From NCBI GenBank assembly GCA_051362555.1, contig CM120640.1, positions 32,073,967 to 32,137,966 of the forward strand: a DNA stretch of 64,000 bases, in the 5' to 3' direction. This stretch comes from Lingula anatina (taxonomy: Eukaryota > Animalia > Brachiopoda). Below are positions 1 to 64,000 of this stretch, piece by piece; positions within the stretch are counted from its first letter, which is position 1, and each line of letters opens with the position of its first letter. The translations under genes and the position numbers were made by a program. Below the pieces are notes generated by a model. That model worked only from the letters and a program-made list of their open reading frames with translations. It was not told the DNA's origin and ran no database searches.

Positions 1-132
1 CTCTACCCAGACACAGACTTCACACGTCGATAGAAGTTAAGGTTAGTAAACTTTTTATTTGGGGGAGGGGGGGGGGAGGATACGGGAGAGGTAAATTAAA
101 AAGATCTAACCTCATTCCTGTTTCTTTTACAG

Positions 133-212
133 GACATAGAAGATGATGTATGCATAGAAGACGATGAGCGACTCTACCCAGACACAGACTTCACACATCG
201 ATAGAAGTTAAG
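133..212 (+). other. Representative type A exon-like unit (80 nt)
   Basis: Preceded by TTTCTTTTACAG (ends 132) and followed by AAG|GTTAGT (213). Contains an imperfect 18-nt tandem duplication, GACATAGAAGATGATGWA / TGCATAGAAGACGATGAG. Frame 1 reads DIEDD(E/V)CIEDDERLYPD(T/I)DFTHR*. Confidence 0.75.
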
Positions 213-303
213 GTTAGTAAACTTTTTATTTGGGGGAGGGGGGGGGGAGGATGGGGGAGAGGTAAATTAAAAAGTTCTAACCTCATTCCTATTTCTTTTA
301 CAG
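213..303 (+). other. Representative type A GT-AG intron-like unit (91 nt here; length varies with the G run)
   Basis: GTTAGT donor at 213, G-tract at 232-262, CTAAC branch motif at 277-281 (branch A ~23 nt before the acceptor), pyrimidine tract CTCATTCCTATTTCTTTT, and CAG at 301-303. Confidence 0.8.
232..262 (+). other. G-quadruplex-capable tract G5-A-G(6-14)-AGGAT-G5-AGAGG, present in each type A intron
   Basis: Read directly. It provides four runs of at least 3 G when the long central run is split. It is always on the + strand. Confidence 0.7.
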
Positions 304-472
304 GACATAGAAGATGATGAATGCATAGAAGACGATGAGCGACTCTACCCTGACATAGACTTCACACATCGATAGAAGTTAAGGTTAGTAAACTTTTTAT
401 TTGGGGGAGGGGGGGAGGATGGCGGGAGAGGTAAATTAAAAAGATCTAACCTCATTCCTGTTTTTTTTACAG

Positions 473-551
473 GACATAGAAGATGATGAATGCCTACCAG
501 CCTACCAGCCTACCATCAAGCATTGACTACTCTTTGGATCAAGAATTTAAG
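473..551 (+). other. Representative type B exon-like unit (79 nt) with internal (GCCTACCA)x3 octamer repeat
   Basis: TACAG| at 472 and AAG|GTTAGT at 552. It shares its first 21 nt with exon A, then continues CTACCAGCCTACCAGCCTACCATCAAGCATTGACTACTCTTTGGATCAAGAATTTAAG. I counted 68 copies by eye. Confidence 0.75.
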
Positions 552-679
552 GTTAGTAAATTTCATTTTTTGGAGGGGATAGGTAAATTGAATTAAAATC
601 TAATCTAGTTTTATTTCCTTTACAGAACACAGAAGACGATGAAAGACTCTACCCAGACATAGACTTCACACATCGATAG
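483..679 (+). CDS. Candidate spliced 40-aa small ORF join(483..551,626..679) MMNAYQPTSLPSSIDYSLDQEFKNTEDDERLYPDIDFTHR*, repeated in most B-C dimers
   Basis: ATG in AAGATGA context, 23 codons to the exon B donor (phase 0), then 17 codons plus TAG in exon C. It exists only after splicing. I recognise no homolog, and many copy variants are non-synonymous. Confidence 0.2.
552..625 (+). other. Representative type B GT-AG intron-like unit (74 nt), a diverged paralog of intron A
   Basis: GTTAGTAAATTTCATTTTTTGGAGGGGATAGGTAAATTGAATTAAAATCTAATCTAGTTTTATTTCCTTTACAG. The donor, CTAAT branch motif, pyrimidine tract and TACAG are kept, while the interior is diverged and the G-tract reduced. Confidence 0.8.
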
Positions 680-687
680 ACGTTAAG
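626..687 (+). other. Representative type C exon-like unit (62 nt); always follows intron B
   Basis: AACACAGAAGACGATGAAAGACTCTACCCAGACATAGACTTCACACATCGATAGA(A/C)GTTAAG, which equals exon A minus the 18-nt duplication. Frame 1 reads NTEDDERLYPDIDFTHR*. Confidence 0.75.
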
Positions 688-12600: not shown

Positions 12601-15600
12601 TCACACATCGATAGAAGTTAAGGTTAGTAAACTTTTTATTTGGGGGAGGGGGGGGGAGGATGGGGGAGAAGTAAATTAAAAAGATCTAACCTCATTCCTA
12701 TTACTTTTACATGACATAGAAGATGATGAATGCATAGAAGACGATGAGCGACTCTACCCAGACACAGACTTCACACATCGATAGAAGTTAAGGTTAGTAA
12801 ACTTTTTATTTGGGGGAGGGGGGGGGGGAGGATGGGGGAAAGGTAAATTAAAAAGTTCTAACCTCATTCCTATTTCTTTTACAGGACATAGAAGATGATG
12901 AATGCATAGAAGACGATGAGCGACTCTACCCAGACACAGACTTCACACATCGATAGAAGTTAAGGTTAGTAAACTTTTTATTTGGGGGAGGGGGGGGGGA
13001 GGATGGGGGAGAAGTAAATTAAAAAGACCTAACCTCATTCCTATTACTTTTACAGGACATAGAAGATGATGAATGTATAGAAGACGATGAGCGACTCTAC
13101 CCAGACACAGACTTCATACATCGATAGAAGTTAAGGTTAGTAAACTTTTTATTTGGGGGAGGGGGGGGGGGAGGATATGGGAGAGGTAAATTAAAAAGAT
13201 CTAACCTCATTCCTGTTTCTTTTACAGGACATAGAAGATGATGTATGCATAGAACACGATGAGCGACTCTACCCAGACACAGACTTCACACATCGATAGA
13301 AGTTAAGGTTAGTAAACTTTTTATTTGGGGGAGGGGGGGGGAGGATGGGGGAGAGGTAAATTAAAAAGTTCTAACCTCATTCTTATTTCTTTTACAGGAC
13401 ATAGAAGATGATGAATGCATAGAAGACGATGAGCGACTCTACCCAGACACAGACTTCACACATCGATAGAAGTTAAGGTTAGTGACCTTTTTATTTGGGG
13501 GAGGGGGGGAGGATATGGGAGAGGTAAATTAAAAAGATCTAACCTCATTCCTATTTCTTTTACAGGACATAGAAGATGATGAATGCATAGAAGACGATGA
13601 GCGACTCTACCCTGACATAGACTTCACACATCGATAGAAGTTAAGGTTAGTTAACTTTTTATTTGGGGGAGGGGGGGGGGGGTAGGATGGCGGGAGAGGT
13701 AAATTAAAAAGATCTAACCTCATTCCTATTTCTTTTACAGGACATAGAAGATGATGAATGCCTACCAGCCTACCAGCCTACCATCAAGCATTGACTACTC
13801 TTTGGATCAAGAATTTAAGGTTAGTAAATTTCATTTTTTGGAGGTGATAGGTAAATTGAATTAAAATCTAATCTAGTTTTATTTCCTTTACAGAACACAG
13901 AAGACGATGAAAGACTCTACCCAGACATAGACTTCACACATCGATAGAAGTTGAGGTTAGTAAACTTTTTATTTGGGGGAGGGGGGGGGGGAGGATATGG
14001 GAGAGGTAAATTAAAAAGATCTAACCTCATTCCTATTTCTTTTACAGGACATAGAAGATGATGAATGCATAGAAGACGATGAGCGACTCTACCCAGACAC
14101 AGACTTCACACATCGATAGAAGTTAAGGTTAGTAAACTTTTTATTTGGGGGAGGGGGGGGGGAGGATGGGGGAGAAGTAAATTAAAAAGACCTAACCTCA
14201 TTCCTATTACTTTTACAGGACATAGAAGATGATGAATGTATAGAAGACGATGAGCGACTCTACCCAGACACAGACTTCATACATCGATAGAAGTTAAGGT
14301 TAGTAAACTTTTTATTTGGGGGAGGGGGGGGGAGGATATGGGAGAGGTAAATTAAAAAGATCTAACCTCATTCCTGTTTCTTTTACAGGACATAGAAGAT
14401 GATGTATGCATAGAAGACGATGAGCGACTCTACCCAGACACAGACTTCACACATCGATAGAAGTTAAGGTTAGTAAACTTTTTATTTGGGGGAGGGGGGG
14501 GAGGATATGGGAGAGGTAAATTAAAAAGATCTAACCTCATTCCTATTTCTTTTACAGGACATAGAAGATGATGAATGCATAGAAGACGATGAGCGACTCT
14601 ACCCAGACACAGACTTCACACATCGATAGAAGTTAAGGTTAGTTAACTTTTTATTTGGGGGAGGGGGGGGTAGGATGGCGGGAGAGGTAAATTAAAAAGA
14701 TCTAACCTCATTCCTATTTCTTTTACAGGACATAGAAGATGATGAATGCCTACCAGCCTACCAGCCTACCATCAAGCATTGACTACTCTTTGGATCAAGA
14801 ATTTAAGGTTAGTAAATTTCATTTTTTGGAGGTGATAGGTAAATTGAATTAAAATCTAATCTAGTTTTATTTCCTTTACAGAACACAGAAGACGATGAAA
14901 GACTCTACCCAGACATAGACTTCACACATCGATAGAAGTTAAGGTTAGTAAACTTTTTATTTGGGGGAGGGGGGGGGAGGATGGGGGAGAAGTAAATTAA
15001 AAAGATCTAACCTCATTCCTATTACTTTTACAGGACATAGAAGATGATGAATGCATAGAAGACGATGAGCGACTCTACCCAGACACAGACTTCACACATC
15101 GATAGAAGTTAAGGTTAGTAAACTTATTATTTGGGGGAGGGGGGGGGAAGATGGGGGAGAGGTAAATTAAAAAGATCTAACCTGATTCCTGTTTCTTTTA
15201 CATGACATAGAAGATGATGTATGCATAGAAGACGATGATTGACTCTACCCAGACACAGACTTCACACATCGATAGAAGTTAAGGTTAGTAAACTTTTTAT
15301 TTGGGGGAGGGGGGGGGGAGGATGGGGGAGAAGTAAATTAAAAAGATCTAACCTCATTCCTATTACTTTTACAGGACATAGAAGATGATGAATGCATAGA
15401 AGACGATGAGCGACTCTACCCAGACACAGACTTTACACATCGATAGAAGTTAAGGTTAGTAAACTTATTATTTGGGGGAGGGGGGGTAGGATGGCGGGAG
15501 AGGTAAATTAAAAAGATCTAACCTCATTCCTATTTCTTTTACAGGACATAGAAGATGATGAATGCCTACCAGCCTACCAGCCTACCAGCCTACCATCAAG

Positions 15601-18600
15601 CATTGACTACTCTTTGGATCAAGAATTTAAGGTTAGTAAATTTCATTTTTTGGAGGGGATAGGTAAATTAAATTAAAATCTAATCTAGTTTTATTTCCTT
15701 TACAGAACACAGAAGACGATGAAAGACTCTACCCAGACATAGACTTCACACATCGATAGAAGTTAAGGTTAGTAAACTTTTTATTTGGGGGAGGGGGGGG
15801 GAGGATGGGGGAGAAGTAAATTAAAAAGATCTAACCTCATTCCTATTTCTTTTACAGGACATAGAAGATGATGAATGCATAGAAGACGATGAGCGACCCT
15901 ACCCAGACACAGACTTCACACATCGATAGAAGTTAAGGTTAGTAAACTTTTTATTTGGGGGAGGGGGGGAGGATATGGGAGAGGTAAATTAAAAAGATCT
16001 AACCTCATTCCTATTTCTTTTACAGGACATAGAAGATGATGAATGCATAGAAGACGATGAGCGACTCTACCCTGACATAGACTTCACACATCGATAGAAG
16101 TTAAGGTTAGTTAACTTTTTATTTGGGGGAGGGGGGGGGGGTAGGATGGCGGGAGAGGTAAATTAAAAAGATCTAACCTCATTCCTATTTCTTTTACAGG
16201 ACATAGAAGATGATGAATGCCTACCAGCCTACCAGCCTACCATCAAGCATTGACTACTCTTTGGATCAAGAATTTAAGGTTAGTAAATTTCACTTTTTGG
16301 AGGGGATAGGTAAATTGAATTAAAATCTAATCTAGTTTTATTTCCTTTACAGAACACAGAAGACGATGAAAGACTCTACCCAGACATAGACTTCACACAT
16401 CGATAGAAGTTAAGGTTAGTAAACTTTTTATTTGGGGGAGGGGGGGGGGGAGGATGGGGGAGAAGTAAATTAAAAAGACCTAACCTCATTCCTATTACTT
16501 TTACAGGACATAGAAGATGATGAATGCATAGAAGACGATGAGCGACTCTACCCAGACACAGACTTCACACATCGATAGAAGTTAAGGTTAATAAACTTAT
16601 TATTTGGGGGAGGGGGGGGGGAGGATGGGGGAGAGGTAAATTAAAAAGATCTAACCTGATTCCTGTTTCTTTTACAGGACATAGAAGATGATGTATGCAT
16701 AGAAGACGATGAGCGACTCTACCCAGACATAGACTTCACACATCGATAGAAGTTAAGGTTAGTAAACTTTTTATTTGGGGGAGGGGGGGGAGGATGGGGG
16801 AGAAGTAAATTAAAAAGATCTAACCTCATTCCTATTACTTTTACAGGACATAGAAGATGATGAATGCATAGAAGACGATGAGCGACTCTACCCAGACACA
16901 GACTTCACACATCGATAGAAGTTAAGGTTAGTAAACTTATTATTTGGGGGAGGGGGGGGGGAGGATGGGGGAGAGGTAAATTAAAAAGATCTAACCTGAT
17001 TCCTGTTTCTTTTACAGGACATAGAAGATGATGTATGCATAGAAGACGATGAGCGACTCTACCCAGACACAGACTTCACACATCGATAGAAGTTAAGGTT
17101 AGTAAAATTTTTATTTGGGGGAGGGGGTGGGAGGATGGGGTAGAGGTAAATTAAAAAGTTCTAACCTCATTCCTATTTCTTTTACAGGACATAGAAGATG
17201 ATGAATGCATAGAAGACGATGAGCGACCCTACCCAGACACAGACTTCACACATCGATAGAAGTTAAGGTTAGTAAACTTTTTATTTGGGGGAGGGGGGGA
17301 GGATATGGGAGAGGTAAATTAAAAAGATCTAACCTCATTCCTATTTCTTTTACAGGACATAGAAGATGATGAATGCATAGAAGACGATGAGCGACTCTAC
17401 CCTGACATAGACTTCACACATCGATAGAAGTTAAGGTTAGTTAACTTTTTATTTGGGGGAGGGGGGGGGGTAGGATGGCGGGAGAGGTAAATTAAAAAGA
17501 TCTAACCTCATTCCTATTTCTTTTACAGGACATAGAAGATGATGAATGCCTACCAGCCTACCAGCCTACCATCAAGCATTGACTACTCTTTGGATCAAGA
17601 ATTTAAGGTTAGTAAATTTCATTTTTTGGAGGGGATAGGTAAATTGAATTAAAATCTAATCTAGTTTTATTTCCTTTACAGAACACAGAAGACGATGAAA
17701 GACTCTACCCAGACATAGACTTCACACATCGATAGAAGTTAAGGTTAGTAAACTTTTTATTTGGGGGAGGGGGGGGGGAGGATGGGGGAGAAGTAAATTA
17801 AAAAGATCGAACCTCATTCCTATTACTTTTACAGGACATAGAAGATGATGAATGCATAGAAGACGATGAGCGGCTCTACCCAGACACAGACTTCACACAT
17901 CGATAGAAGTTAAGGTTAGTAAACTTATTATTTGGGGGAGGGAGGGGGAGGATGGGGGAGAGGTAAATTAAAAAGATCTAACCTGATTCCTGTTTCTTTT
18001 ACAGGACATAGAAGATGATGTATGCATAGAAGACGATGAGCGACTCTACCCAGACACAGACTTCACACATCGTTAGAAGTTAAGGTTAGTAAACTTTTTA
18101 TTTGGGGGAGGGGGGGGGGGGGAGGATGGGGGAGAAGTAAATTAAAAAGATCTAACCTCATTCCTATTACTTTTACAGGACATAGAAGATGATGAATGCA
18201 TAGAAGACGATGAGCGACTCTACCCAGACACAGACTTTACACATCGATAGAAGTTAAGGTTAGTAAACTTATTATTTGGGGGAGGGGGGGGGGAGGATGG
18301 GGGAGAGGTAAATTAAAAAGATCTAACCTCATTCCTGTTTCTTTTACAGGACATAGAAGATGATGTATGTATAGAAGACGATGAGCGACTCTACCCAGAC
18401 ACAGACTTCACACATCGATAGAAGTTAAGGTTAGTAAACTTTTTATTTGGGGGAGGGGGGGGGGGAGGATGGGGGAGAGGTAAATTAAAAAGTTCTAACC
18501 TCATTCCTATTTCTTTTACAGGACATAGAAGATGATGAATGCATAGAAGACGATGAGCGACTCTACCCAGACACAGACTTCACACATCGATAGAAGTTAA

Positions 18601-24600: not shown

Positions 24601-27600
24601 GGAGGATATGGGAGAGGTAAATTAAAAAGATCTAACCTCATTCCTATTTCTTTTACAGGACATAGAAGATGATGAATGCATAGAAGACGATGAGCGACTC
24701 TACCCTGACACAGACTTCACACATCGATAGAAGTTAAGGTTAGTAAACTTTTTATTTGGGGGAGGGGGGGGGGGAAGGATGGCGGGAGAGGTAAATTAAA
24801 AAGATCTAACCTGATTCCTGTTTCTTTTACAGGACATAGAAGATGATGTATGCATAGAAGACGATGAGCGACTCTACCCAGACACAGACTTCACACATCG
24901 ATAGAAGTTAAGGTTAGTAAACTTTTTATTTGGGGGAGGGGGGGGGAGGATGGGGGAGAAGTAAATTAAAAAGATCTAACCTCATTCCTATTACTTTTAC
25001 AGGACATAGAAGATGATGAATGCATAGAAGACGATGAGCGACTCTACCCAGACACAGACTTCACACATCGATAGAAGTTAAGGTTAGTAAACTTTTTATT
25101 TGGGGGAGGGGGGGGAGGATGGGGGAGAAGTAAATTAAAAAGATCTAACCTCATTCCTATTACTTTTACAGGACATAGAAGATGATGAATGCATAGAAGA
25201 CGATGAGCGACTCTACCCAGACACAGACTTTACACATCGATAGAAGTTAAGGTTAGTAAACTTATTATTTGGGGGAGGGGGGGTAGGATGGGAGAGAGGT
25301 AAATTAAAAAGATCTAACCTCATTCCTATTTCTTTTACAGGACATAGAAGATGATGTATGCATAGAAGACGATGAGCGACTCTACCCAGACACAGACTTC
25401 ACACATCGATAGAAGTTAAGGTTAGTAAACTTTTTATTTGGGGGAGGGGGGGGGAGGATGGGGGAGAAGTAAATTAAAAAGATCTAACCTCATTCCTATT
25501 TCTTTTACAGGACATAGAAGATGATGTATGCATAGAAGACGATGAGCGACTCTACCCAGACACAGACTTCACACATCGATAGAAGTTAAGGTTAGTAAAC
25601 TTTTTATTTGGGGGAGGGGGGGGGAGGATGGGGGAGAAGTAAATTAAAAAGATCTAACCTCATTCCTATTACTTTTACAGGACATAGAAGATGATGAATG
25701 CATAGAAGACGATGAGCGACTCTACCCAGACACAGACTTTACACATCGATAGAAGTTAAGGTTAGTAAACTTATTATTTGGGGGAGGGGGGGTAGGATGG
25801 GGGAGAGGTAAATTAAAAAGATCTAACCTCATTCCTGTTTCTTTTACAGGACATAGAAGATGATGTATGCATAGAAGACGATGAGCGACTCTACCCAGAC
25901 ACAGACTTCACACATCGATAGAAGTTAAGGTTAGTAAACTTTTTATTTGGGGGAGGGGGGGGGAGGATGGGGGAGAGGTAAATTAAAAAGTTCTAACCTT
26001 ATTCCTATTTCTTTTACAGGACATAGAAGATGATGAATGCATAGAAGACGATGAGCGACTCTATCCAGACACAGACTTCACACATCGATAGAAGTTAAGG
26101 TTAGTAAACTTTTTATTTGGGGGAGGGGGGGGGGAGGATATGGGAGAGGTAAATTAAAAAGATCTAACCTCATTCCTATTTCTTTTACAGGACATAGAAG
26201 ATGATGAATGCATAGAAGACGATGAGCGACTCTACCCTGACACAGACTTCACACATCGATAGAAGTTAAGGTTAGTAAACTTTTTATTTGGGGGAGGGGG
26301 GGGGGGGAAGGATGGCGGGAGAGGTAAATTAAAAAGATCTAACCTGATTCCTGTTTCTTTTACAGGACATAGAAGATGATGTATGCATAGAAGACGATGA
26401 GCGACTCTACCCAGACACAGACTTCACACATCGATAGAAGTTAAGGTTAGTAAACTTTTTATTTGGGGGAGGGGGGGGGGAGGATGGGGGAGAAGTAAAT
26501 TAAAAAGATCTAACCTCATTCCTATTACTTTTACAGGACATAGAAGATGATGAATGCATAGAAGACGATGAGCGACTCTACCCAGACACAGACTTTACAC
26601 ATCGATAGAAGTTAAGGTTAGTAAACTTATTATTTGGGGGAGGGGGGGTAGGATGGGGGAGAGGTAAATTAAAAAGATCTAACCTCATTCCTGTTTCTTT
26701 TACAGGACATAGAAGATGATGTATGCATAGAAGACGATGAGCGACTCTACCCAGACACAGACTTCACACATCGATAGAAGTTAAGGTTAGTAAACTTTTT
26801 ATTTGGGGGAGGGGGGGGGAGGATGGGGGAGAGGTAAATTAAAAAGTTCTAACCTTATTCCTATTTCTTTTACAGGACATAGAGGTAAATTAAAAAGATC
26901 TAACCTGATTCCTGTTTCTTTTACAGGACATAGAAGATGATGTATGCATAGAAGACGATGAGCGACTCTACCCAGACACAGACTTCACACATCGATAGAA
27001 GTTAAGGTTAGTAAACTTTTTATTTGGGGGAGGGGGGGGGAGGATGGGGGAGAAGTAAATTAAAAAGATCTAACCTCATTCCTATTACTTTTACAGGACA
27101 TAGAAGATGATGAATGCATAGAAGACGATGAGCGACTCTACCCAGACACAGACTTTACACATCGATAGAAGTTAAGGTTAGTAAACTTATTATTTGGGGG
27201 AGGGGGGGTAGGATGGGGGAGAGGTAAATTAAAAAGATCTAACTTCATTCCTGTTTCTTTTACAGGACATAGAAGATGATGTATGCATAGAAGACGATGA
27301 GCGACTCTACCCAGACACAGACTTCACACATCGATAGAAGTTAAGGTTAGTAAACTTTTTATTTGGGGGAGGGGGGGGGAGGATGGGGGAGAGGTAAATT
27401 AAAAAGATCTAACCTCATTCCTGTTTCTTTTACAGGACATAGAAGATGATGTATGCATAGAAGACGATGAGCGACTCTACCCAGACACAGACTTCACACA
27501 TCGATAGAAGTTAAGGTTAGTAAACTTTTTATTTGGGGGAGGGGGGGGGAGGATGGGGGAGAGGTAAATTAAAAAGTTCTAACCTTATTCCTATTTCTTT

Positions 27601-33600: not shown

Positions 33601-36600
33601 TCCTATTACTTTTACAGGACATAGAAGATGATGAATGCATAGAAGACGATGAGCGACTCTACCCAGACACAGACTTCACACATCGATAGAAGTTAAGGTT
33701 AGTAAACTTATTATTTGGGAGAGGGGGGGGGAGGATGGGAGAGAGGTAAATTAAAAAGATCTAACCTCATTCCTGTTTCTTTTACAGAACATAGAAGATG
33801 ATGTATGCATAGAAGACGATGAGCGACTCTACCCAGACACAGACTTCACACATCGATAGAAGTTAAGGTTAGTAAACTTTTTATTTGGGGAGGGGGGGGG
33901 AGGATGGGGGAGAAGTAAATTAAAAAGATCTAACCTCATTCCTATTACTTTTACAGGACATAGAAGATGATGAATGCATAGAAGACGATGAGCGACTCTA
34001 CCCAGACACAGACTTCACACATCGATAGAAGTTAAGGTTAGTAAACTTTTTATTTGGGGGGGAGGGGGGGGGAGGATGGCGGGAGAGGTAAATTAAAAAG
34101 ATCTAACCTCATTCCTATTTCTTTTACAGGACATAGAAGATGATGAATGCCTACCAGCCTACCAGCCTACCATCAAGCATTGACTACACTTTGGATCAAA
34201 AATTTAAGGTTAGTAAATTTCATTTTTTGGAGGTGATAGGTAAATTGAATTAAAATCTAATCTACTTTTATTTCCTTTACAGAACACAGAAGACGATGAA
34301 AGACTCTACCCAGACATAGACTTCACACATCGATAGAAGTTAAGGTTAGTAAACTTATTATTTGGGAGAGGGGGGGGGGGAGGATGGGGGAGAGGTAAAT
34401 TAAAAAGATCTAACCTCATTCCTGTTTCTTTTACAGGACATAGAAGATGATGTATGCATAGAAGACGATGAGCGACTCTACCCAGACACAGACTTCACAC
34501 ATCGATAGAAGTTAAGGTTAGTAAACTTTTTATTTGCGGGAGGGGGGGGGGAGGATATGGGAGAGGTAAATTAAAAAGATCTAACCTCATTCCTGTTTCT
34601 TTTACAGGACATAGAAGATGATGTATGCATAGAAGACGATGAGCGACTCTACCCAGACACAGACTTCACACATCAATAGAAGTTAAGGTTAGTAAACTTT
34701 TTATTTGGGGGAGGGGGGGGAGGATTGCGGCAGGGTAAATTAAAAAGATCTAACCTCATTCCTATTTCTTTTACAGGACATAGAAGATGATGAATGCCTA
34801 CCAGCCTACCAGCCTACCATCAAGCATTGACTACTCTTTGGATCAAGAATTTAAGGTTAGTAAATTTCATTTTTTGGAGGGGATAGGTAAATTGAATTAA
34901 AATCTAATCTAGTTTTATTTCCTTTACAGAACACAGAAGACGATGAAAGACTCTACCCAGACATAGACTTCACACATCGATAGAAGTTAAGGTTAGTAAA
35001 CTTTTTATTTGGGGGAGGGGGGGGAGGATGGGGGAGAGGTAAATTAAAAAGTTCTAACCTCATTCCTATTTCTTTTACAGGACATAGAAGATGATGAATG
35101 CATAGAAGACGATGAGCGACTCTACCCAGACACAGACTTCACACATCGATAGAAGTTAAGGTTAGTAAACTTATTATTTGGGGGAGGGGGGGGAGGATGG
35201 GGGAGAGGTAAATTAAAAAGATCTAACCTCATTCCTGTTTCTTTTACAGGACATAGAAGATGATGTATGCATAGAAGACGATGAGCGACTCTACCCAGAC
35301 ACAGACTTCACACATCGATAGAAGTTAAGGTTAGTAAACTTTTTATTTGGGGGAGGGGGGGGAGGATGGGGGAGAGGTAAATTAAAAAGTTCTAACCTCA
35401 TTCCTATTTCTTTTACAGGACATAGAAGATGATGAATGCATAGAAGACGATGAGCGACTCTACCCAGACGTAGACTTCACACATCGATAGAAGTTAAGGT
35501 TAGTAAACTTTTTATTTGGGGGAGGGGGGGGAGGATATGGGAGAGGTAAATTAAAAAGATCTAACCTCATTCCTATTTCTTTTACAGGACATAGAAGTTG
35601 ATGAATGCATAGAAGACGATGTGCGACTCTACCCTGACATAGACTTCACACATCGATAGAAGTTAAGGTTAGTAAACTTTTTTATTTGGGGGAGGGGGGG
35701 GAGGATGGCGGGAGAGGTAAATTAAAAAGATCTAACCTCATTCCTATTTCTTTAACAGGACATAGAAGATGATGAATATATAGAAGACGATGAGCGACTC
35801 TACCCTGACACAGACTTCACACATCGATAGAAGTTAAGGTTAGTAAACTTTTTTTTGGGGGGGGAGGGGGGGGGAGGATGGCGGGAGAGGTAAATGAAAA
35901 AGATCTAACCTCATTCCTATTTCTTTTACAGGACATAGAAGATGATGAATGCCTACCAGCCTACCAGCCTACCATCAAGCATTGACTACACTTTGGATCA
36001 AAAATTTAAGGTTAGTAAATTTCATTTTTTGGAGGGGATAGGTAAATTGAATTAAAATCTAATCTAGTTTTATTTCGTTTACAGAACACAGAAGACGATG
36101 AAAGACTCTACCCAGACATAGACTTCACACATCGATAGAAGTTAAGGTTAGTAAACTTTTTATTTGGGGGAGGGGGGGGGAGGATGGGGGAGAAGTAAAT
36201 TAAAAAGATCTAACCTCATTCCTATTACTTTTACAGGACATAGAAGATGATGAATGCATAGAAGACGATGAGCGACTCTACACAGACAGAGACTTCACAC
36301 ATCGATAGAAGTTAAGGTTAGTAAACTTATTATTTTGGGGAGGGGGGGGGAGGATGGTGGAGAAGTAAATTTAAAATATCTAACCTCATTCCTATTACTT
36401 TTACAGGACATAGAAGATGATGAATGCATAGAAGACGATGAGCGACTCTACCCAGACACAGACTTTACACATCGATAGAAGTTAAGGTTAGTAAACTTTT
36501 TATTTGGGGGAGGGGGGGGGAGGATGGGGGAGAAGTAAATTAAAAAGATCTAACCTGATTCCTGTTTCTTTTACAGGACATAGAAGATGATGTATGCATA

Positions 36601-45000: not shown

Positions 45001-45200
45001 GTAAATTAAAAATATCTAACCTGATTCCTGTTTATTTTACAGGACATAGAAGATGATGTATGCATAGAAGACGATGAGCGACTCTACCCAGACACAGACT
45101 TCACACATCGATAGAAGTTAAGGTTAGTAAACTTTTTATTTGGGGGAGGGGGGGAGGATGGGGGAGAGGTAAATTAAAAAGATCTAACCTCATTCTTATT
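39060..45200 (+). repeat. Higher-order tandem duplication, ~3.0-3.14 kb period
   Basis: B exons at ~39116/42093, 40629/43766 and 41617/44755 share rare variants (GGTTGGGGGATAAG, GAAGTTGATG...GTGCGA, TTCAAACATC, GATTGCGACAGGG). Confidence 0.8.
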
Positions 45201-47449
45201 ACTTTTACAGGACATAGAAGATGATGAATGCATAGAAGACGATGAGCGACTCTACCCAGACACAGACTTCACACATCGATAAAAGTTAAGGTTAGTAAAC
45301 TTATTATTTGGGAGCGGGGGGGGGGGGGGGAGGATGGGGGAGAGGTAAATTAAAAAGATCTTACCTCATTCCTGTTTCTTTTACAGGACATAGAAGATGA
45401 TGTATGCCTACCAGCCTACCATCAAGCATTGACTACTCTTTGGATCAAGAATTTAAGGTTAGTAAATTTCATTTTTTGGAGGGGATAGGTAAATTGAATT
45501 AAAATCTAATCTAGTTTTATTTCCTTTACAGAACACAGAAGACGATGAAAGACTCTACCCAGACAAAGACTTCACACATCGATAGAAGTTAAGGTTAGTA
45601 AACTTTTTATTTGGGGGAGGGGGGGGGAGGAGGGGGGAGAAGTAAATTTAAAAGATCTAACTTGATTCCTGTTTATTTTACAGGACATAGAAGATGATGA
45701 ATGCATAGAAAACGATGAGCGACTCTACCCAGACACAGACTTCACACATCGATAGAAGTTAAGGTTAGTAAACTTATTATTTGGGAGAGGGGGGGGGGGA
45801 GGATGGGAGAGAGGTAAATTAAAAAGATCTAACCTGATTCCTGTTTCTTTTACAGGACATAGAAGATGATGTATGCATAGAAGACGATGAGCGACTCTAC
45901 CCAGACACAGACTTCACACATCGATAGAAGTTAAGGTTAGTAAACTTTTTATTTGGGGGAGGGGGGGGGGAGGATGGGGGAGAGGTAAATTAAAAAGATC
46001 TAACCTCATTCCTATTTATTTTACAGGACATAGAAGATGATGAATGCCTACCAGCCTACCATCAAGCATTGACTACTCTTTGGATCAAGAATTTAAGGTT
46101 AGTAAATTTCATTTTTTGGAGGGGATAGGTAAATTGAATTAAAATCTAATCTAGTTTTATTTCCTTTACAGAACACAGAAGACGATGAAAGACTCTACCC
46201 AGACACAGACTTCACACATCGATAGAAGTTAAGGTTAGTAAACTTTTTATTTGGGGGAGGGGGGGAGGATGGCGGGAGAGGTAAATTAAAAAGATCTAAC
46301 CTCATTCCTATTTCTTTTACAGGACATAGAAGATGATGAATGCCTACCAGCCTACCAGCCTACCATCAAGCATTGACTACTCTTTGGATCAAGAATTTAA
46401 GGTTAGTAAATTTCATTTTTTGGAGGTGATAGGTAAATTGAATTAAAATCTAATCTAGTTTTTTTTCTTTTACAGAACAAAGAAGACGATGAAAGACTCT
46501 ACCCTGACATAGACTTCACACATCGATAGAAGTTAAGGTTAGTAAACTTTTTATTTGGGGGAGGGGGGGAGGATGGCGGGAGAGGTAAATTAAAAAGATC
46601 TAACCTCATTCCTATTTCTTTTACAGGTCATAGAAGATGATGAATGCCTACCAGCCTACCATCAAGCATTGACTACTCTTTGGATCATGAATTTAAGGTT
46701 AGAAAATTTCATTTTTTTTTGGAGGGGATAGGTAAATTGAATTAAAATCTAATCTAGTTTTATTTCCTTTACAGAACACAGAAGACGATGAAAGACTCTA
46801 CCCAGACATAGACTTCACACATCGATAGAAGTTAAGGTTAGTAAACTTTTTATTTTGGGGAGGGGGGGGAGGAGGGGGGAGAAGTAAATTAAAAAGATCT
46901 AACCTCATTCCTATTACTTTTACAGGACATAGAAGATGATGAATGCATAGAAGACGATGAGCGACTCTACCCAGACACAGACTTCACACATCGATAGAAG
47001 TTAAGGTTAGTAAACTTATTATTTGGGGGAGGGGGGGGAGGATGGGGGAGAGGTAAATTAAAAAGATCTAACCTGATTCCTGTTTCTTTTACAGGACATA
47101 GAAGATGATGTATGCATAGAAGACGATGAGCGACTCTACCCAGACACAGACTTCACACATCGATAGAAGTTAAGGTTAGTAAACTTTTTATTTGGGGGAG
47201 GGGGGGTAGGATGGGGGAGAAGTAAATTAAAAAGATCTAACCTCATTCCTATTACTTTAACAGGACATAGAAGATGATGAATGCATAGAAGACGATGAGC
47301 GACTCTACCCAGACACAGACTTTACACATCGAGAGAAGTTAAGGTTAGTAAACTTATTATTTGGGGGAGGGGGGGGAGGATGGGGGAGAGGTAAATTAAA
47401 AAGATCTAACCTCATTCCTGTTTCTTTTACAGGACATAGAAGATGATGT

Positions 47450-50400
47450 ATGCATAGAAGACGATGAGCGACTCTACCCAGACACAGACTTCACACATCG
47501 ATAGAAGTTAAGGTTAGTAAACTTTTTATTTGGGGGAAGAGGGGGGGGGTTGGGGGAGAGGTAAATTAAAAAGTTCTAACCTCATTCCTATTTCTTTTAC
47601 AGGACATAGAAGATGATGAATGCATAGAAGACGATGAGCGACTCTACCCTGACATAGACTTCACACATCGATAGAAGTTAAGGTTAGTAAACTTTTTATT
47701 TGGGGGAGAGGGGGGGAGGATGGCGGGAGAGGTAAATTAAAAAGATCTAACCTCATTCCTATTTCTTTTACAGGACATAGAAGATGATGAATGCCTACCA
47801 GCCTACCAGCCTACCATCAAGCATTGACTACTCTTTGGATCAAGAATTTAAGGTTAGTAAATTTCATTTTTTGGAGGGGATAGGTAAATTGAATTAAAAT
47901 CTAATCTAGTTTTATTTCTTTTACAGAACACAGAAGACGATGAAAGACTCTACCCAGACATAGACTTCACACATCGATAGAAGTTAAGGTTAGTAAACTT
48001 TTTATTTGGGGGAGGGGGGGGGAGGATGGGGGAGAAGTAAATTAAAAAGATCTAACCTCATTCCTATTACTTTTACAGGACATAGAAGATGATGAATGCA
48101 TAGAAGACGATGAGCGACTCTACCCAGACACAGACTTCACACATCGATAGAAGTTAAGGTTAGTAAACTTATTATTTTGGGGAGGGGGGGGGAGGATGGG
48201 GGAGAGGTAAATTAAAAAGATCTAACCTGATTCCTGTTTCTTTTACAGGACATAGAAGATGATGTATGCATAGAAGACGATGAGCGACTCTACCCAGACA
48301 CAGACTTCACACATCGATAGAAGTTAAGGTTAGTAAACTTTTTATTTGGGGGAGGGGGGGGAGGATGGGGGAGAAGTAAATTAAAAAGATCTAACCTCAT
48401 TCCTATTACTTTAACAGGACATAGAAGATGATGAATGCATAGAAGACGATGAGCGACTCTACCCAGACACAGACTTTACACATCGATAGAAGTTAAGGTT
48501 AGTAAACTTATTATTTGGGGGAGGGGGGGTAGGATGGGGGAGAGGTAAATTAAAAAGATCTAACCTCATTCCTGTTTCTTTTACAGGACATAGAAGATGA
48601 TGTATGCATAGAAGACGATGAGCGACTCTACCCAGACACAGACTTCACACATCGATAGAAGTTAAGGTTAGTAAACTTTTTATTTGGGGGAGGGGGGGGG
48701 GAGGATGGGGGAGAGGTAAATTAAAGAGTTCTAACCTTATTCCTATTTCTTTTACAGGACATAGAAGATGATGAATGCATAGAAGACGATGAGCGACTCT
48801 ATCCAGACACAGACTTCACACATCGATAGAAGTTAAGGTTAGTAAACTTTTTATTTGGGGGAGGGGGGGGGAAGGATGGCGGGAGAGGTAAATTAAAAAG
48901 ATCTAACCTCATTCCTATTTCTTTTACAGGACATAGAAGATGATGAATGCCTACCAGCCTACCAGCCTACCATCAAGCATTGACTACTATTTGGATCAAG
49001 AATTTAAGGTTAGTAAATTTCATTTTTTGGAGGGGATAGGTAAATTGAATTAAAATCTAATCTAGTTTTATTTCCTTTACAGAACACAGAAGACGATGAA
49101 AGACTCTACCCAGACATAGACTTCACACATCGATAGAAGTTAAGGTTAGTAAACTTTTTATTTGGGGGAGGGGGGGAGGATGGGGGATAAGTAAATTAAA
49201 AAGATCTAACCTCATTCCTATTACTTTTACAGGACATAGAAGATGATGAATGCATAGAAGACGATGAGCGACTCTACACAGACAGAGACTTCACACATCG
49301 ATAGAAGTTAAGGTTAGTAAACTTATTATTTTGGGGAGGGGGGGGGAGGATGGGGGAGAAGTAAATTAAAAATATCTAACCTCATTCCTATTACTTTTAC
49401 AGGACATAGAAGATGATGTATGCATAGAAGACGATGAGCGACTCTACCCAGACACAGACTTTACACATCGATAGAAGTTAAGGTTAGTAAACTTTTTATT
49501 TGGGGGAGGGGGGGGGGGAGAATGGGGGAGAAGTAAATTAAAAAGACCTAACCTCATTCCTATTACTTTTACAGGACATAGAAGATGATGAATGCATAGA
49601 AGACGATGAGCGACTCTACCCAGACACAGACTTCACACATCGATAGAAGTTAAGGTCAGTAAACTTTTTATTTGCGGGAGGGGGGGGGGGAGGATATGGG
49701 AGAGGTAAATTAAAAAGATCTAACCTCATTCCTGTTTCTTTTACAGGACATAGAAGATGATGTATGCATAGAAGACGATGAGCGACTCTACCCAGACACA
49801 GACTTCACACATCAATAGAAGTTAAGGTTAGTAAACTTTTTATTTAGGGGAGGGGGGGGGAAGATTGCGGCAGGGTAAATTAAAAAGATCTAACCTCATT
49901 CCTATTTCTTTTACAGGACATAGAAGATGATGAATGCCTACCAGCCTACCAGCCTACCATCAAGCATTGACTACTCTTTGGATCAAGAATTTAAGGTTAG
50001 TAAATTTCATTTTTTGGAGGGGATAGTTAAATTGAATTAAAATCTAATCTAGTTTTATTTCCTTTACAGAACACAGAAGACGATGAAAGACTCTACCCAG
50101 ACATAGACTTCACACATCGATAGAAGTTAAGGTTAGTAAACTTTTTATTTGGGGGAAGGGGGGGAGGAGGGGGGAGAAGTAAATTAAAAAGATCTAACCT
50201 GATTCCTGTTTATTTTACAGGACATAGAAGATGATGTATGCATAGAAGACGATGAGCGACTCTACCCAGACACAGACTTCACACATCGATAGAAGTTAAG
50301 GTTAGTAAACTTTTTATTTGGGGAAGGGGGGGGGAGGATGGGGGAGAGGTAAATTAAAAAGTTCTAACCTCATTCCTATTTCTTTTACAGGACATAGAAG

Positions 50401-53400: not shown

Positions 53401-53570
53401 GACTTCACACATCGATAGAAGTTAAGGTTAGTAAACTTTTTATTTGGGGAAGGGGGGGGAGGATGGGGGAGAGGTAAATTAAAAAGTTCTAACCTCATTC
53501 CTATTTCTTTTACAGGACATAGAAGATGATGAATGCATAGAAGACGATGAGCGACTCTACCCAGACACAG
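47450..53570 (+). repeat. Higher-order tandem duplication, ~3.13 kb period
   Basis: B exons at ~47794/50921, 48950/52077 and 49937/53063. Shared rare variants GGGAAGAGGGGGGGGTTGGGG, TAAAGAGTTC and GATAGTTAAATTG sit at offset ~3127. Confidence 0.85.
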
Positions 53571-56500
53571 ACTTCACACATCGATAGAAGTTAAGGTTAG
53601 TAAACTTTTTATTTGCCGGAGGGGGGGGAGGATGGGGGAGAGGTAAATTAAAAAGATCTAACCTCATTCCTGTTTCTTTTACAGGACATAGAAGATGATG
53701 TATGCATAGAAGACGATGAGCGACTCTACCCAGACACAGACTTCACACATCGATAGAAGATAAGGTTAGTAAACTTTTTATTTTGGGGAGGGGGGGGAGG
53801 ATGGGGGAGAGGTAAATTAAAAAGTTCTAACCTAATTCCTATTTCTTTTACAGGACATAGAAGATGATGAATGCATAGAAGACGATGAGCGACTCTACCC
53901 AGACAGACTTCACACATCGATAGAAGTTAAGGTTAGTAAACTTTTTATTTGGGGGAGGGGGGGGGGGGAGGATATGGGAGAGGTAAATTAAAAAGATCTA
54001 ACCTCATTCCTATTTCTTTTACAGGACATAGAAGTTGATGAATGCATAGAAGACGAAGAGCGACTCTACCCTGACATAGACTTCACACATCGATAGAAGT
54101 TAAGGTTAGTAACCTTTTTATTTGGGGGAGGGGGGGGGGAGGATGGCGGGAGAGGTAAATTAAAAAGATCTAACCTCATTCCTATTTCTTTTACAGGACA
54201 TAGAAGATGATGAATGCCTACCAGCCTACCATCAAGCATTGACTACTCTTTGGATCAAGAATTTAAGGTTAGTAAATTTCATTTTTTGGAGGGGATAGGT
54301 AAATTGAATTAAAATCTAATCTAGTTTTATTTCTTTTACAGAACAAAGAAGACGATGAAGGACTCTACCCTGACATAGAATTCACACATCAATAGAAGTT
54401 AAGGTTAGTAAACTTTTTATTTGGGGGAGCTGGGGGGAGGATGGCGGGAGAGGTAAATTAAAAAGATCTAACCTCATTCCTATTTCTTTTACAGGTCATA
54501 GAAGATGATGAATGCCTACCGGCCTACCAGCCTACCATCAAGCATTGACTACTCTTTGGATCAAGAATTTAAGGTTAGTAAATTTCATTTTTTGGAGGGG
54601 ATAGGTAAATTGAACTAAAATCTAATCTAGTTTTATTTCTTTTACAGAACAAAGAAGACGATGAAAGACTCTACCCAGACATAGACTTCACACATCGATA
54701 GAAGTTAAGGTTAGTAAACGTTTTATTTGGGGGAGGGGGGGGGGAGGATGGGGGAGAGGTAAATTAAAAAGATCTAACCTCATTCCTGTTTCTTTTACAG
54801 GACATAGAAGATGATGTATGCATAGAAGACGATGAGCGACTCTACCCAGACACAGACTTCACACATCAATAGAAGTTAAGGTTAGTAAACTTTTTATTTG
54901 GGGGAAGGGTGGGGGCAGGATTGCGGCAGGGTAAATTAAAAAGATCTAACCTCATTCCTATTTCTTTTACAGGACATAGAAGATGATGAATGCCTACCAG
55001 CCTACCAGCCTACCATCAAGCATTGACTACTCTTTGGATCAAGAATTTAAGGTTAGTAAATTTCATTTTTTGGAGGGGATAGGTAAATTGAATTAAAATC
55101 TAATCTAGTTTTATTTCCTTTACAGAACACAGAAGACGATGAAAGACTCTACCCAGACATAGACTTCACACATCGATAGAAGTTAAGGTTAGTAAACTTT
55201 TTATTTGGGGGAGGGGGGGGGAGGAGGGGGGAGAAGTAAATTAAAAAGATCTAACCTGATTCCTGTTTATTTTAATGGACATAGAAGATGATGAATGCAT
55301 AGAAGACGATGAGCGACTCTACCCTGACATAGACTTCACACATCGATAGAAGTTAAGGTTAGTAAACATATTATTTGGTGGAGGGGGGGAGATGTGCGGA
55401 GAAGTAAATTAAAAAGTTCTAACCTCATTCCTATTTCTTTTACAGGACATAGAAGATGATGCATGCATAGAAGACGATGAGCGACTCTACCCAGACACAG
55501 ACTTCACACATCGATAGAAGTTAAGGTTAGTAAACATATTATTTGGGGGAGGGGGGGAGATGTGCGGAGAGGTAAATTAAAAAGTTCTAACCTCATTCCT
55601 ATTTCTTTTACAGGACATAGAAGATAATGAATGCATAGAAGACGATGAGCGACTCTACCCTGACATAGACTTCACACATCGATAGAAGTTAAGGTTAGTA
55701 AACTTTTTATTTGGGGGAGGTGGGGGGAGGATGGCGGGAGAGGTAAATTAAAAAGATCTAACCTCATTCCTATTTCTTTTACAGGACATAGAAGATGATG
55801 AATGCCTACCAGCCTACCAGCCTACCATCATGCATTGACTACTCTTTGGATCAAGAATTTAAGGTTAGTAAATTTCATTTTTTGGGGGGGATAGGTAAAT
55901 TGAATTGAAATCTAATCTAGTTTTATTTCCTTTACAGAACACAGAAGACGATGAAAGACTCTACCCAGACATAGACTTCACACATCGATAGAAGTTAAGG
56001 TTAGTAAACTTTTTGGGGGAGGGGAAGGGGGGGGGGATGTGGGGTCAGGTAAATTAAAAAGTTATAACCTCATTCCTATTTCTTTTACAGGACATAGAAA
56101 ATGATGAATGCATAGAAGACGATGAGCGACTCTACCCAGACACAGACTTCACACATCGATAGAAGTTAAGGTTAGTAAACTTTTTATTTGGGGAAGGGGG
56201 GGGGGGAGGATGGGGGAGAGGTAAATTAAAAAGATCTAACCTCATTCCTATTTCTTTTACAGGACATAGAAGATGATGAATGCATAGAAGACGATGAGCG
56301 ACTCTACCCAGACACAGACTTCACACATCGATAGAAGTTAAGGTTAGTAAACTTTTTATTTGGGGTAGGGGGGGGGGAGGATATGGGAGAGGTAAATGAA
56401 AAAGATCTAACCTCATTCCTATTTCTTTTACAGGACATAGAAGATGATGAATGCATAGAAGACGATGAGCGACTCTACCCTGACATAGACTTCACACATC

Positions 56501-59500: not shown

Positions 59501-61600
59501 TAAAATGTAATCTAGTTTTATTTCTTTTACAGAACAAAGAAGACGATGAAGGACTCTACCCTGACATAGAATTCACACATCAATAGAAGTTAAGGTTAGT
59601 AAACTTTTTATTTGGGGGAGCTGGGGGGAGGATGGCGGGAGAGGTAAATTAAAAAGATCTAACCTCATTCCTATTTCTTTTACAGGTCATAGAAGATGAT
59701 GAATGCCTACCGGCCTACCAGCCTACCATCAAGCATTGACTACTCTTTGGATCAAGAATTTAAGGTTAGTAAATTTCATTTTTTGGAGGGGATAGGTAAA
59801 TTGAACTAAAATCTAATCTAGTTTTATTTCTTTTACAGAACAAAGAAGACGATGAAAGACTCTACCCAGACATAGACTTCACACATCGATAGAAGTTAAG
59901 GTTAGTAAACGTTTTATTTGGGGGAGGGGGGGGGGAGGATGGGGGAGAGGTAAATTAAAAAGATCTAACCTCATTCCTGTTTCTTTTACAGGACATAGAA
60001 GATGATGTATGCATAGAAGACGATGAGCGACTCTACCCAGACACAGACTTCACACATCAATAGAAGTTAAGGTTAGTAAACTTTTTATTTGGGGGAAGGG
60101 TGGGGGGAGGATTGCGGCAGGGTAAATTAAAAAGATCTAACCTCATTCCTATTTCTTTTACAGGACATAGAAGATGATGAATGCCTACCAGCCTACCAGC
60201 CTACCATCAAGCATTGACTACTCTTTGGATCAAGAATTTAAGGTTAGTAAATTTCATTTTTTGGAGGGGATAGGTAAATTGAATTAAAATCTAATCTAGT
60301 TTTATTTCCTTTACAGAACACAGAAGACGATGAAAGACTCTACCCAGACATAGACTTCACACATCGATAGAAGTTAAGGTTAGTAAATTTTTTATTTGGG
60401 GGAGGGGGGGGGAGGAGGGGGGAGGAGGGGGGAGAAGTAAATTAAAAAGATCTAACCTGATTCCTGTTTATTTTAATGGACATAGAAGATGATGAATGCA
60501 TAGAAGACGATGAGCGACTCTACCCTGACATAGACTTCACACATCGATAGAAGTTAAGGTTAGTAAACATATTATTTGGTGGAGGGGGGGAGATGTGCGG
60601 AGAAGTAAATTAAAAAGTTCTAACCTCATTCCTATTTCTTTTACAGGACATAGAAGATGATGCATGCATAGAAGACGATGAGCGACTCTACCCAGACACA
60701 GACTTCACACATCGATAGAAGTTAAGGTTAGTAAACATATTATTTGGGGGAGGGGGGGAGATGTGCGGAGAGGTAAATTAAAAAGTTCTAACCTCATTCC
60801 TATTTCTTTTACAGGACATAGAAGATGATGAATGCATAGAAGACGATGAGCGACTCTACCCTGACATAGACTTCTCACATCGATAGAAGTTAAGGTTAGT
60901 AAACTTTTTATTTGGGGGAGGTGGGGGGAGGATGGCGGGAGAGGTAAATTAAAAAGATCTAACCTCATTCCTATTTCTTTTACAGGACATAGAAGATGAT
61001 GAATGCCTACCAGCCTACCAGCCTACCATCATGCATTGACTACTCTTTGGATCAAGAATTTAAGGTTAGTAAATTTCATTTTTTGGGGGGGATAGGTAAA
61101 TTGAATTGAAATCTAATCTAGTTTTATTTCCTTTACAGAACACAGAAGACGATGAAAGACTCTACCCAGACATAGACTTCACACATCGATAGAAGTTAAG
61201 GTTAGTAAACTTTTTGGGGGAGGGGAAGGGGGGGGGGGATGTGGGGTCAGGTAAATTAAAAAGTTATAACCTCATTCCTATTTCTTTTACAGGACATAGA
61301 AAATGATGAATGCATAGAAGACGATGAGCGACTCTACCCAGACACAGACTTCACACATCGATAGAAGTTAAGGTTAGTAAACTTTTTATTTGGGGAAGGG
61401 GGGGGGGAGGATGGGGGAGAGGTAAATTAAAAAGATCTAACCTCATTCCTATTTCTTTTACAGGACATAGAAGATGATGAATGCATAGAAGACGATGAGC
61501 GACTCTACCCAGACACAGACTTCACACATCGATAGAAGTTAAGGTTAGTAAACTTTTTATTTGGGGTAGGGGGGGGGGGAGGATATGGGAGAGGTAAATT
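52760..61600 (+). repeat. Higher-order duplication, ~5.19 kb offset (about 52760-56400 copied at 57950-61600)
   Basis: Identical spurious ORFs at 53726 and 58919 (offset 5193). Shared variants include TTGCCGGA, GAGCTGGGG, CTACCGGCC, TTTAATGGAC and GGGGTCAGG. Confidence 0.85.
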
Positions 61601-64000
61601 AAAAAGATCTAACCTCATTCCTATTTCTTTTACAGGACATAGAAGATGATGAATGCATAGAAGACGATGAGCGACTCTACCCAGACACAGACTTCACACA
61701 TCGATAAAAGTTAAGGTTAGTAAACATATTATTTGGGGGAGGGGGGGAGATGTGGGGAGAGGTAAATTAAAAAGATCTAACCTCATTCCTATTTCTTTTA
61801 CAGGACATAGAAGATGATGAATGCATAGAAGACGATGAGCGACTCTACCCTGACATAGACTTCACACATCGATAGAAGTTAAGGTTAGTAAACATATTAT
61901 TTGGGGGAGGGGGGGAGATGTGCGGAGAGGTAAATTAAAAAAATCTAACCTCATTCCTATTTCTTTTACAGGACATAGAAGATGATGAATGCATAGAAGA
62001 CGATGAGCGACTCTACCCAGACACAGACTTCACACATCGATAGAAGTTAAGGTTAGTAAACTTTTTATTTGGGGAAGGGGGGGGGAGGATGGGGGAGAGG
62101 TAAATTAAAAAGATCTAACCTCATTCCTATTTCTTTTACAGGACATAGAAGATGATGAATGCATAGAAGACGATGAGCGACTCTACCCAGACACAGACTT
62201 CACACATCGATAGAAGTTAAGGTTAGTAAACTTTTTATTTGGGGTAGGGGGGGGGGGAGGATATGGGAGAGGTAAATTAAAAAGATCTAACCTCATTCCT
62301 ATTTCTTTTACAGGACATAGAAGATGATGAATGCATAGAAGACGATGAGCGACTCTACCCAGACACAGACTTCACACATCGATAAAAGTTAAGGTTAGTA
62401 AACATATTATTTGGGGGAGGGGGGGAGATGTGGGGAGAGGTAAATTAAAAAGATCTAACCTCATTCCTATTTCTTTTACAGGACATAGAAGATGATGAAT
62501 GCATAGAAGACGATGAGCGACTCTACCCTGACATAGACTTCACACATCGATAGAAGTTAAGGTTAGTAAACATATTATTTGGGGGAGGGGGGGAGATGTG
62601 CGGAGAGGTAAATTAAAAAAATCTAACCTCATTCCTATTTCTTTTACAGGACATAGAAGATGATGAATGCATAGAAGACGATGAGCGACTCTACCCTGAC
62701 ATAGACTTCACACATCGATAGAAGTTAAGGTTAGTAAACATATTATTTGGGGGAGGGGGGGAGATGTGGGGAGAGGTAAATTAAAAAGTTCTAACCTCAT
62801 TCCTATTTCTTTTACAGGACATAGAAGATGATGAATGCATAGAAGACGATGAGCGACTCTACCCTGACATAGACTTCACACATCGATAGAAGTTAAGGTT
62901 AGTAAACTTTTTACTTGGGGGAGGTGGGGGGAGGATGGCGGGAGAGGTAAATTAAAAAGATCTAACCTCATTCCTATTTCTTTTACAGGACATAGAAGAT
63001 GATGAATGCCTACCAGCCTACCAGCCTACCATCATGCATTGACTACTCTTTGGATCAAGAATTTAAGGTTAGTAAATTTCATTTTTTGGAGGGGATAGGT
63101 AAATTGAATTAAAATCTAATCTAGTTTTATTTCCTTTACAGAACACAGAAGACGATGAAAGACTCTACCCAGACATAGACTTCACACATCGATAGAAGTT
63201 AAGGTTAGTAAACTTTTTATTTGGGGGAGGGGGGGGGGATGTGGGGTCAGGTAAATTAAAAAGTTATAACCTCATTCCTATTTCTTTTACAGGACACAGA
63301 AAATGATGAATGCATAGAAGACGATGAGCGACTCTACCCAGACACAGACTTCACACATCGATAGAAGTTAAGGTTAGTAAACTTTTTATTTTTGGAAGGG
63401 GGGGGGGAGGATGGGGGAGAGGTAAATTAAAAAGATCTAACCTCATTCCTATTTCTTTTACAGGACATAGAAGATGATGAATGCATAGAAGACGATGAGC
63501 GACTCTACCCTGACATAGACTTCACACATCGATAGAAGTTAAGGTTAGAAAACTTTTTATTTGGGGTAGGGGGGGGGAGGATATGGGAGAGGTAAATTAA
63601 AAAGATCTAACCTCATTCCTATTTCTTTTACAGGACATAGAAGATGATGAATGCATAGAAGACGATGAGCGACTCTACCCTGACATAGACTTCACACATC
63701 GATAGAAGTTAAGGTTAGTAAACTTTTTATTTGGGGGAGGGTGGGGGAGGATGGCGGGAGAGGTAAATTAAAAAGACCTAGCCTCATTCCTATTTCTTTT
63801 ACAGGACATAGAAGATGATGAATGCCTACCAGCCTACCAGCCTACCATCAAGCATTGACTACTCTTTGGATCAAGAATTTAAGGTTAGTAAATTTCATTT
63901 TTGGAGGGGATAGGTAAATTGAATTAAAAACTAATCTAGTTTTATTTCCTTTACATAACACAGAAGACGATGAAAGACTCTACCCAGACATAGACTTCAC

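Follow-up and report, generated by a model that had tools for sequence, protein, structure and literature searches.

The DNA analysed here (the window) is a stretch of 64,000 nucleotides (nt) from Lingula anatina (assembly GCA_051362555.1, contig CM120640.1, positions 32,073,967 to 32,137,966, forward strand). Tandem Repeats Finder (TRF) assigned all of it (1..64000) to one tandem array that runs on past both window ends. A parse of the units, anchored on a fuzzy 14-letter donor context, gave 389 splice donors, the first at position 42 and the last at 63884, and 388 whole exon-intron units of 135-221 nt, all on the + strand. About 390 spliceable exon-intron modules had been proposed from the letters alone (the original prediction), and the parse bears out this description.

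Organisation of the array

The array is built from two intron types and three exon types, which can be followed along one example. Exon C (34777..34855; 68 copies) has 79 nt, composed of 63 nt and two additional copies of an 8-nt unit. Intron B (34856..34929, 74 nt), with a GTTAGT donor, a CTAAT branch motif, a pyrimidine tract and a CAG acceptor, is present in 67 whole copies of 73-77 nt and occurs exclusively after exon C. Each intron B is followed by exon S (34930..34991; 62 nt, 67 copies), which contains TAG in phase 0. Intron A (34992..35080, 89 nt) combines GTTAGT, a hypervariable G tract, a CTAAC branch motif, a pyrimidine tract and CAG; its 321 copies measure 86-100 nt, apart from two of 141 nt. 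Exon L (35081..35160; 80 nt, 253 copies) starts like exon C and ends in 62 nt like exon S. The units are thereby divided into intron A with exon L (253), intron A with exon C (68) and intron B with exon S (67). Overall, the introns span 73-100 nt, the exons have 62, 79 or 80 nt, and the exons add up to 29,730 nt.

The GT of the donor was intact in 388 of 388 introns, with the hexamers GTTAGT (369), GTCAGT (6), GTTGGT (5), GTAAGT (5), GTTAGA (2) and GTTAAT (1). The original prediction was right in its donor variants, exact in placing them at 1683, 1849 and 37167, and right that no donor loses GT; it missed five acceptors without AG (among 389 introns) and 14 of 388 units without a CTRAY branch motif. 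The distance from the branch motif to the intron end is 23-24 nt. Specifically, AT replaces the acceptor AG in two copies of intron A (12623..12712 and 15114-15203) and in the final intron of the window, a copy of B (63884-63956), and TG replaces it in two further copies of intron A (55188..55277 and 60379-60478); the four copies of intron A belong to whole units. A YAG lies in the exon 7 nt after each of the five lost acceptors and could rescue splicing.

The GT donor, branch motif, pyrimidine tract and YAG acceptor follow one another in the order of U2-type introns. A strict rule requiring donor, branch, tract and acceptor was satisfied by 344 of 387 units, and by 5 of 5000 dinucleotide shuffles of one monomer read on either strand; the real monomer that was tested satisfied it on the + strand only. 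Because of this difference between shuffles and real units, the exon-intron anatomy is not due to chance. The 389 copies derive from two intron types and are not independent evidence, and an argument from the one-strand arrangement was dropped, since copies of a single monomer are not independent of each other.

Several further signals were seen in the units. Both A and B have a second donor-like site, AG/GTAAAT, in mid-intron (for example, 34887-34892), about 42 nt from the acceptor; it is nearly invariant in intron A, and among the RNA joints listed none uses it. At 26830..26934 and, as a copy, at 28412-28516, a stretch of 51 nt with branch point and acceptor is duplicated; with it, the segments 26786-26926 and 28368-28508 could either contain a micro-exon of 9 nt, with a GT-AG interval of 42 nt behind it, or offer two acceptors in competition. 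AATAAA, noted on the minus strand of intron A, has 327 minus-strand and 6 plus-strand occurrences, and ATTAAA 369 on the plus strand and never in exons; a spliced sense RNA would carry no poly(A) signal inside the window.

Growth of the array

The window has the features of a satellite, namely a long head-to-tail array, short homogeneous monomers and higher-order duplications. Exon copies differ from their majority sequence by 0.9-1.6%. Exact duplicates of at least 300 nt cover 62% of the window, and the offsets among the 25 longest range from 678 to 6594 nt. The longest, a 2128-nt block at 47390..49517 that is repeated exactly 3127 nt downstream, exemplifies a recent multi-unit duplication. 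Judged by the established behaviour of tandem arrays, this pattern would be that of repeated unequal exchange of multi-unit blocks. The higher-order composition varies along the window: most higher-order units in the first 11 kb include a C-B-S block, and 33 consecutive units of intron A and exon L without such a block lie at about 23700-29400.

Introns A and B can be aligned along their length except in the G tract. Homology also links exons C and S, and 18 letters added to the start of exon S give exon L. All units therefore descend from a single exon-intron module.

Long exact duplicates are also what would be seen if the unit were real and its copy number had been inflated by assembly error, an explanation to which the 62% coverage, the 2128-nt duplicate and the freely varying lengths of the G runs lend some support. 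However, the copies share substitution variants in blocks nested at many offsets, and intron A occurs in 198 distinct sequences, as expected of real stepwise duplication. We therefore consider inflation by assembly highly improbable.

Splicing of related arrays

Eight of the nine RNA runs listed under the species label were aligned to two segments of the array, with 6-30% of each run read. On 34777-35160, at 90% likeness, runs X1, X4, X7 and X5 gave 11, 0, 5 and 0 reads, and hence X4 and X5 provide no test. On 45856-46233, at 80% likeness, runs X2, X3, X8 and X9 gave 13, 16, 174 and 151 reads; of those in X8 and in X9, about 90-100 per run lay on the G tract with loose poly-G ends and were discounted as artefacts.

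Three runs yielded joints between exons at the predicted boundaries, with 5 (X7), 47 (X8) and 25 (X9) joint counts, which are not read counts because a single read may hold two joints. In X7, five of five reads, with five different starts, join the end of an S-like exon to the start of a C-like exon. The same kind of joint was counted 10 times in X8 and 4 times in X9. Additionally, joints from a C-like end back to a C-like start were counted 32 and 14 times, and joints skipping 91 letters, which is the length of that copy of intron A, 5 and 7 times, respectively; the aligner cut for the latter fell 3 letters early, at a place where a single letter distinguishes the exon end from the intron end. 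The 13 junction 16-mers were sought in the DNA of the window, and none occurs there. The RNA of arrays related to this one thus joins exon ends and starts at the boundaries laid out in the original prediction, and the units are genuine exon-intron modules.

The source of these reads is indicated by their letters. In X8 and X9, every read on the ends of exons S and L bears marker letters foreign to the aligned copies, and ten different C-like versions are shown by the reads. Wherever markers are readable in junction reads (the S- and L-side joints and the C-to-C inserts), they belong to diverged relatives. Therefore, the spliced RNA comes from at least one related array, 5-20% diverged, which is either paralogous or another population's version. 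Different diverged relatives, with differing marker letters on the C-like exon, are expressed in two of the studies (P1 and P3), which suggests several arrays with tissue- or population-specific use.

Splicing of the relatives is incomplete, because over the B-like intron unspliced reads (depth 20-30 in X8 and X9; 9 of 11 reads in X1) are roughly equal in number to spliced ones. The first mate lay on the minus strand in 11 of 11 reads of X1, which fits RNA from the + strand, given a stranded library of the common type.

RNA from the array itself

Whichever of the 389 units a read came from, it should fall on the aligned copy. On 34777-35160, no read in X1, X4, X5 or X7 lay on exon L or intron A and none was at least 99% alike, where X4 and X5 again count as no test. 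In X2, X3, X8 and X9, the reads at least 99% alike numbered 0, 2, 3 and 3. In X3, 2 of the 16 reads lie wholly inside the aligned stretch. Marker-free depth in that run is 2 at both margins of the stretch, namely between about 46130 and its last base (46233) and between its first base (45856) and 45893; the ends of the stretch are crossed by no read, and at either end of intron A there is a single divergent read. Read from this depth table, and below the threshold at which joints were listed, the pattern would be that of one 142-nt fragment in which the end of intron B and exon S are spliced to the start of exon L. In X2, three marker-free segments on exon L end at the exon boundary and do not enter intron A.

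The yield specific to this array is thus about one fragment in eight partly read runs, set against an exon sum of 30 kb, and its RNA level is very low because a read from any unit would have been expected to align. The original prediction saw in the array a source of a spliced RNA of about 30 kb, of which this one inferred read pair is the only trace. Junction reads, which it had named as the check, exist in relatives 5-20% diverged and are limited for this array to that pair.

Intron contents

Recognisable microRNA or small nucleolar RNA (snoRNA) cargo, as in the introns of small-RNA host genes, was sought in the segment 34500-36500. Rfam returned one match there, Xist_exon1 (E 0.52, 14.8 bits against a cut-off of 50), which we judged to be due to chance. 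A snoRNA host was rejected as an identity, as ATGATGA, which we take to be C-box-like, sits in the exons and not in the introns.

The G-rich middle of the introns can pair with the pyrimidine tract in a predicted hairpin near the acceptor; a 5'-tailed mirtron has this geometry, with the acceptor fixing the 3' end of its hairpin. If the introns were mirtron-like precursors of this kind, splicing would shed hundreds of small-RNA precursors. Of 197 distinct A introns, 187 do have a predicted hairpin that stops 1-4 nt short of the intron end, and in 19 of 19 B introns this distance is 2-3 nt. However, folding was no more stable than in shuffles (z = -0.65 for B; -0.33 and +0.77 for A), variation within the unit is highest in the 5' arm (1.7 vs 0.8 alleles per position), and no Rfam family was matched in the segment searched. 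Mirtron-like precursors are therefore very unlikely, and the small-RNA and NMD-host ideas of the original prediction gain nothing from folding or from Rfam.

The introns also hold 262 motifs of the G-quadruplex type, all of them on the + strand. The G tract, as the most variable part of the unit, may promote instability of the array.

Coding capacity and origin

The lengths of 385 of 388 exons are not a multiple of three, and the longest ATG-initiated frame in the 29,730-nt spliced product encodes 40 amino acids. For these two reasons, the spliced product of this array is non-coding, as the original prediction had it; symmetric exons that keep a frame open after splicing, the mark of a repeat-protein gene, are missing. 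Only three exons keep the frame. One is the unique exon C with four 8-nt copies (15545..15631, + strand; 87 nt), which is open throughout phase 0 (DIEDDECLPAYQPTSLPSSIDYSLDQEFK) and reads through as an acidic peptide. The others are two 78-nt copies of exon L (53854-53931 and 59047-59124), which have a 2-nt deletion and are open in phase 0.

Exon C with one 8-nt copy would be a 63-nt exon that is open in phase 0 only. The relatives do carry a single 8-nt copy: in their insert table, with ten distinct versions shown and one row beyond those, nine of the ten give exons of 63 nt and one gives 64 nt. Among the relatives' versions with a readable end, seven of eight finish in TAG in phase 0 and one is open (our own reading of the table), and the 62-nt S type is also spliced into the relatives' RNA. 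Because of these stops and this spliced-in S type, the expressed relative is non-coding as well. Loose read ends in X1 and X3, read by hand, extend the acidic frame upstream in two further versions. Taken together, these sequences somewhat favour a founder that was a 63-nt coding exon, from a gene that specified an acidic repeat of 21 residues and has since decayed; alternatively, the origin would be a repeat long non-coding RNA (lncRNA) that never coded.

An array inside a living repeat-protein gene, which is skipped, read through other splice sites or read with a reassigned stop codon, was also considered. The phase-0 reading yields a protein-like acidic peptide, and the stop in exons L and S and in most versions of the relative is the same codon, TAG. 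However, 385 of the 388 exons shift the frame whatever TAG means, TGA, TAG and TAA stops all occur in the other frames, and the protein searches detailed below returned no relative. A living gene is thus a remote prospect.

At the DNA level, a pattern search of metagenome and viral contigs gave 0 matches. A second pattern led to two loci (L001 and L002), which were dismissed, as they had only the 22-23 searched letters in common and their surroundings were unrelated.

Variation at the splice signals

The original prediction regarded the splice signals as specially preserved, and the mutation-spectrum test that it proposed was carried out by counting distinct alleles over 319 copies of intron A, with the two 141-nt copies excluded. 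The five core splice positions had 3 variant alleles vs 4.1 expected (P=0.38), GT alone had 0 vs 1.65 (P=0.15), and nine splice positions had 7 vs 7.3 (P=0.55). Moreover, 25 of 61 positions of intron A outside the G tract are as invariant as GT. No depletion was found, and at the low power of these tests the splice signals are not shown to be protected; they mutate like neighbouring bases.

Interpretation

We favour, with a probability of about 0.62, the account that the array consists of real exon-intron modules and likely expanded, by unequal crossing-over, from a gene composed of short repeated exons; that it likely retains its splice signals through inheritance and not through present selection; and that it encodes no long protein and is probably only weakly transcribed. 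The parts that carry it are the anatomy, the block duplications, the loss of coding, the relatives' splicing at the same boundaries and the lack of variant depletion at splice positions; its origin, neutrality, low expression and turnover are the parts that we infer. The founder unit would have been a 63-nt exon with an intron of 75-90 nt, and this one short exon and one short intron would have been duplicated within a gene. The frame would then have broken, and three derivatives (62 nt; 63+16 nt; 62+18 nt) would have been amplified by unequal exchange, here to at least 64 kb. The splice signals would travel with the module, in an array too young for their decay. Wherever RNA polymerase II passes, the introns would be removed singly and often incompletely, leaving a stop-riddled exon concatemer that is likely turned over.

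Several points weigh against this account. Concerning inheritance of the signals, the copy-weighted variant load at nine splice positions was 0.035 (median 0.25; uncorrected P=0.036); of eight selection tests, no other fell below 0.05, and all of them, covering 5-9 positions, have low power. Concerning weak transcription, expression may be strong in an unsampled tissue, as the tissues of the runs are unspecified and a fraction of each run was read. Concerning the coding origin, 41% of shuffles of the 63-mer are open in at least one frame and 14% in phase 0, and exon differences among relatives amount to about 3 synonymous vs 9 replacement or stop changes (hand count), as in neutral DNA. HMMER with a 31-residue query against 1.84 billion representatives gave 0 matches, two word searches limited to proteins of at most 2000 residues found no protein relative (longer proteins being covered solely by HMMER), and 0 of 3 queries matched in Pfam. 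Additionally, the flanks, promoter and host gene lie outside the window.

Some of these points bear on a functional spliced repeat lncRNA of restricted tissue or stage, in which hundreds of splicing events would load U1, spliceosomes or exon-junction complexes. Such an RNA would be in line with a family that is spliced as an exon concatemer though non-coding, with the one inferred spliced read pair at least 99% like this array, with the intact GT of all donors, with the copy-weighted result, and with the possible rescue of all five lost acceptors by YAG. However, the allele-count tests gave no depletion, the array yielded about one fragment for all its exons, and over the B-like intron the relatives' unspliced reads equal the spliced ones. 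We regard such an lncRNA as unlikely. Similarly, it is doubtful that the organism keeps a family of "spliced satellite" arrays, with a minimal exon and intron as monomer and hundreds of 75-90 nt introns per transcript, spliced unit by unit as functional non-coding RNAs that, in some tissue or stage, concentrate splicing machinery or exon-junction complexes or shed small RNAs. A scaffold or small-RNA function of this array is unsupported. The structure is real and unusual; what is shown for the family is splice competence, not function.

Comparison with known systems

SNHG14 (the host of SNORD115/116), MEG8/Rian and FIRRE are spliced lncRNAs of repeated exon-intron units. Their units are much longer, they have intronic snoRNAs or protein-binding repeats, and they are strongly expressed in particular tissues. 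In contrast, the array described here has no such support from cargo or expression.

Two systems are closer in single respects. The SmPoMuc genes of Schistosoma mansoni consist of units of about 1 kb, each an exon with its flanking intron, at up to 20 per gene and with a 27-bp exon that is still coding, and SOWgp and spider-silk genes are cited there as comparable (PMC2576457). The likeness lies in head-to-tail exon-intron repeats, concerted homogenisation, two intermingled unit types and a purine tract per unit; unlike SmPoMuc, the array has units of 135-180 nt, at least 389 of them, and a broken frame. The C19MC host gene is described as a non-coding RNA polymerase II unit with repeated spliced 123-nt exons, 37 copies in 100 kb, and 46 microRNA precursors in its introns, in units of 400-700 nt (PMC2691840). 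It shares with the array the repeated, spliced, non-coding exons, whereas the array has minimal introns, no RNA family found in them and ten times more copies. The view in the original prediction that known cases have kb-scale units is slightly overstated, given the 400-700 nt reported for C19MC (PMC2691840).

The array resembles SmPoMuc in how it grew and C19MC in being non-coding and spliced, and it belongs to neither, as it lacks both an open frame and intronic cargo. Compared with the two systems, it has units that are smaller by a factor of several and exceed theirs ten- to twentyfold in number. A literature search by title and abstract start, in a collection with few subscription papers, listed no paper on a non-coding satellite with a whole spliced exon-intron monomer.

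These results indicate that complete, working exon-intron modules can make up an array of satellite size, and that the units of such a family are spliced one after another although they are non-coding. They link gene decay, the birth of a satellite and the birth of a repeat lncRNA. The 389 near-identical introns, with natural variants of donor, branch and acceptor in one context, would offer a ready test of splice-site rules and of selection on splicing itself. If the RNA has a job, the array would represent a new extreme of intron density and intron number per transcript.

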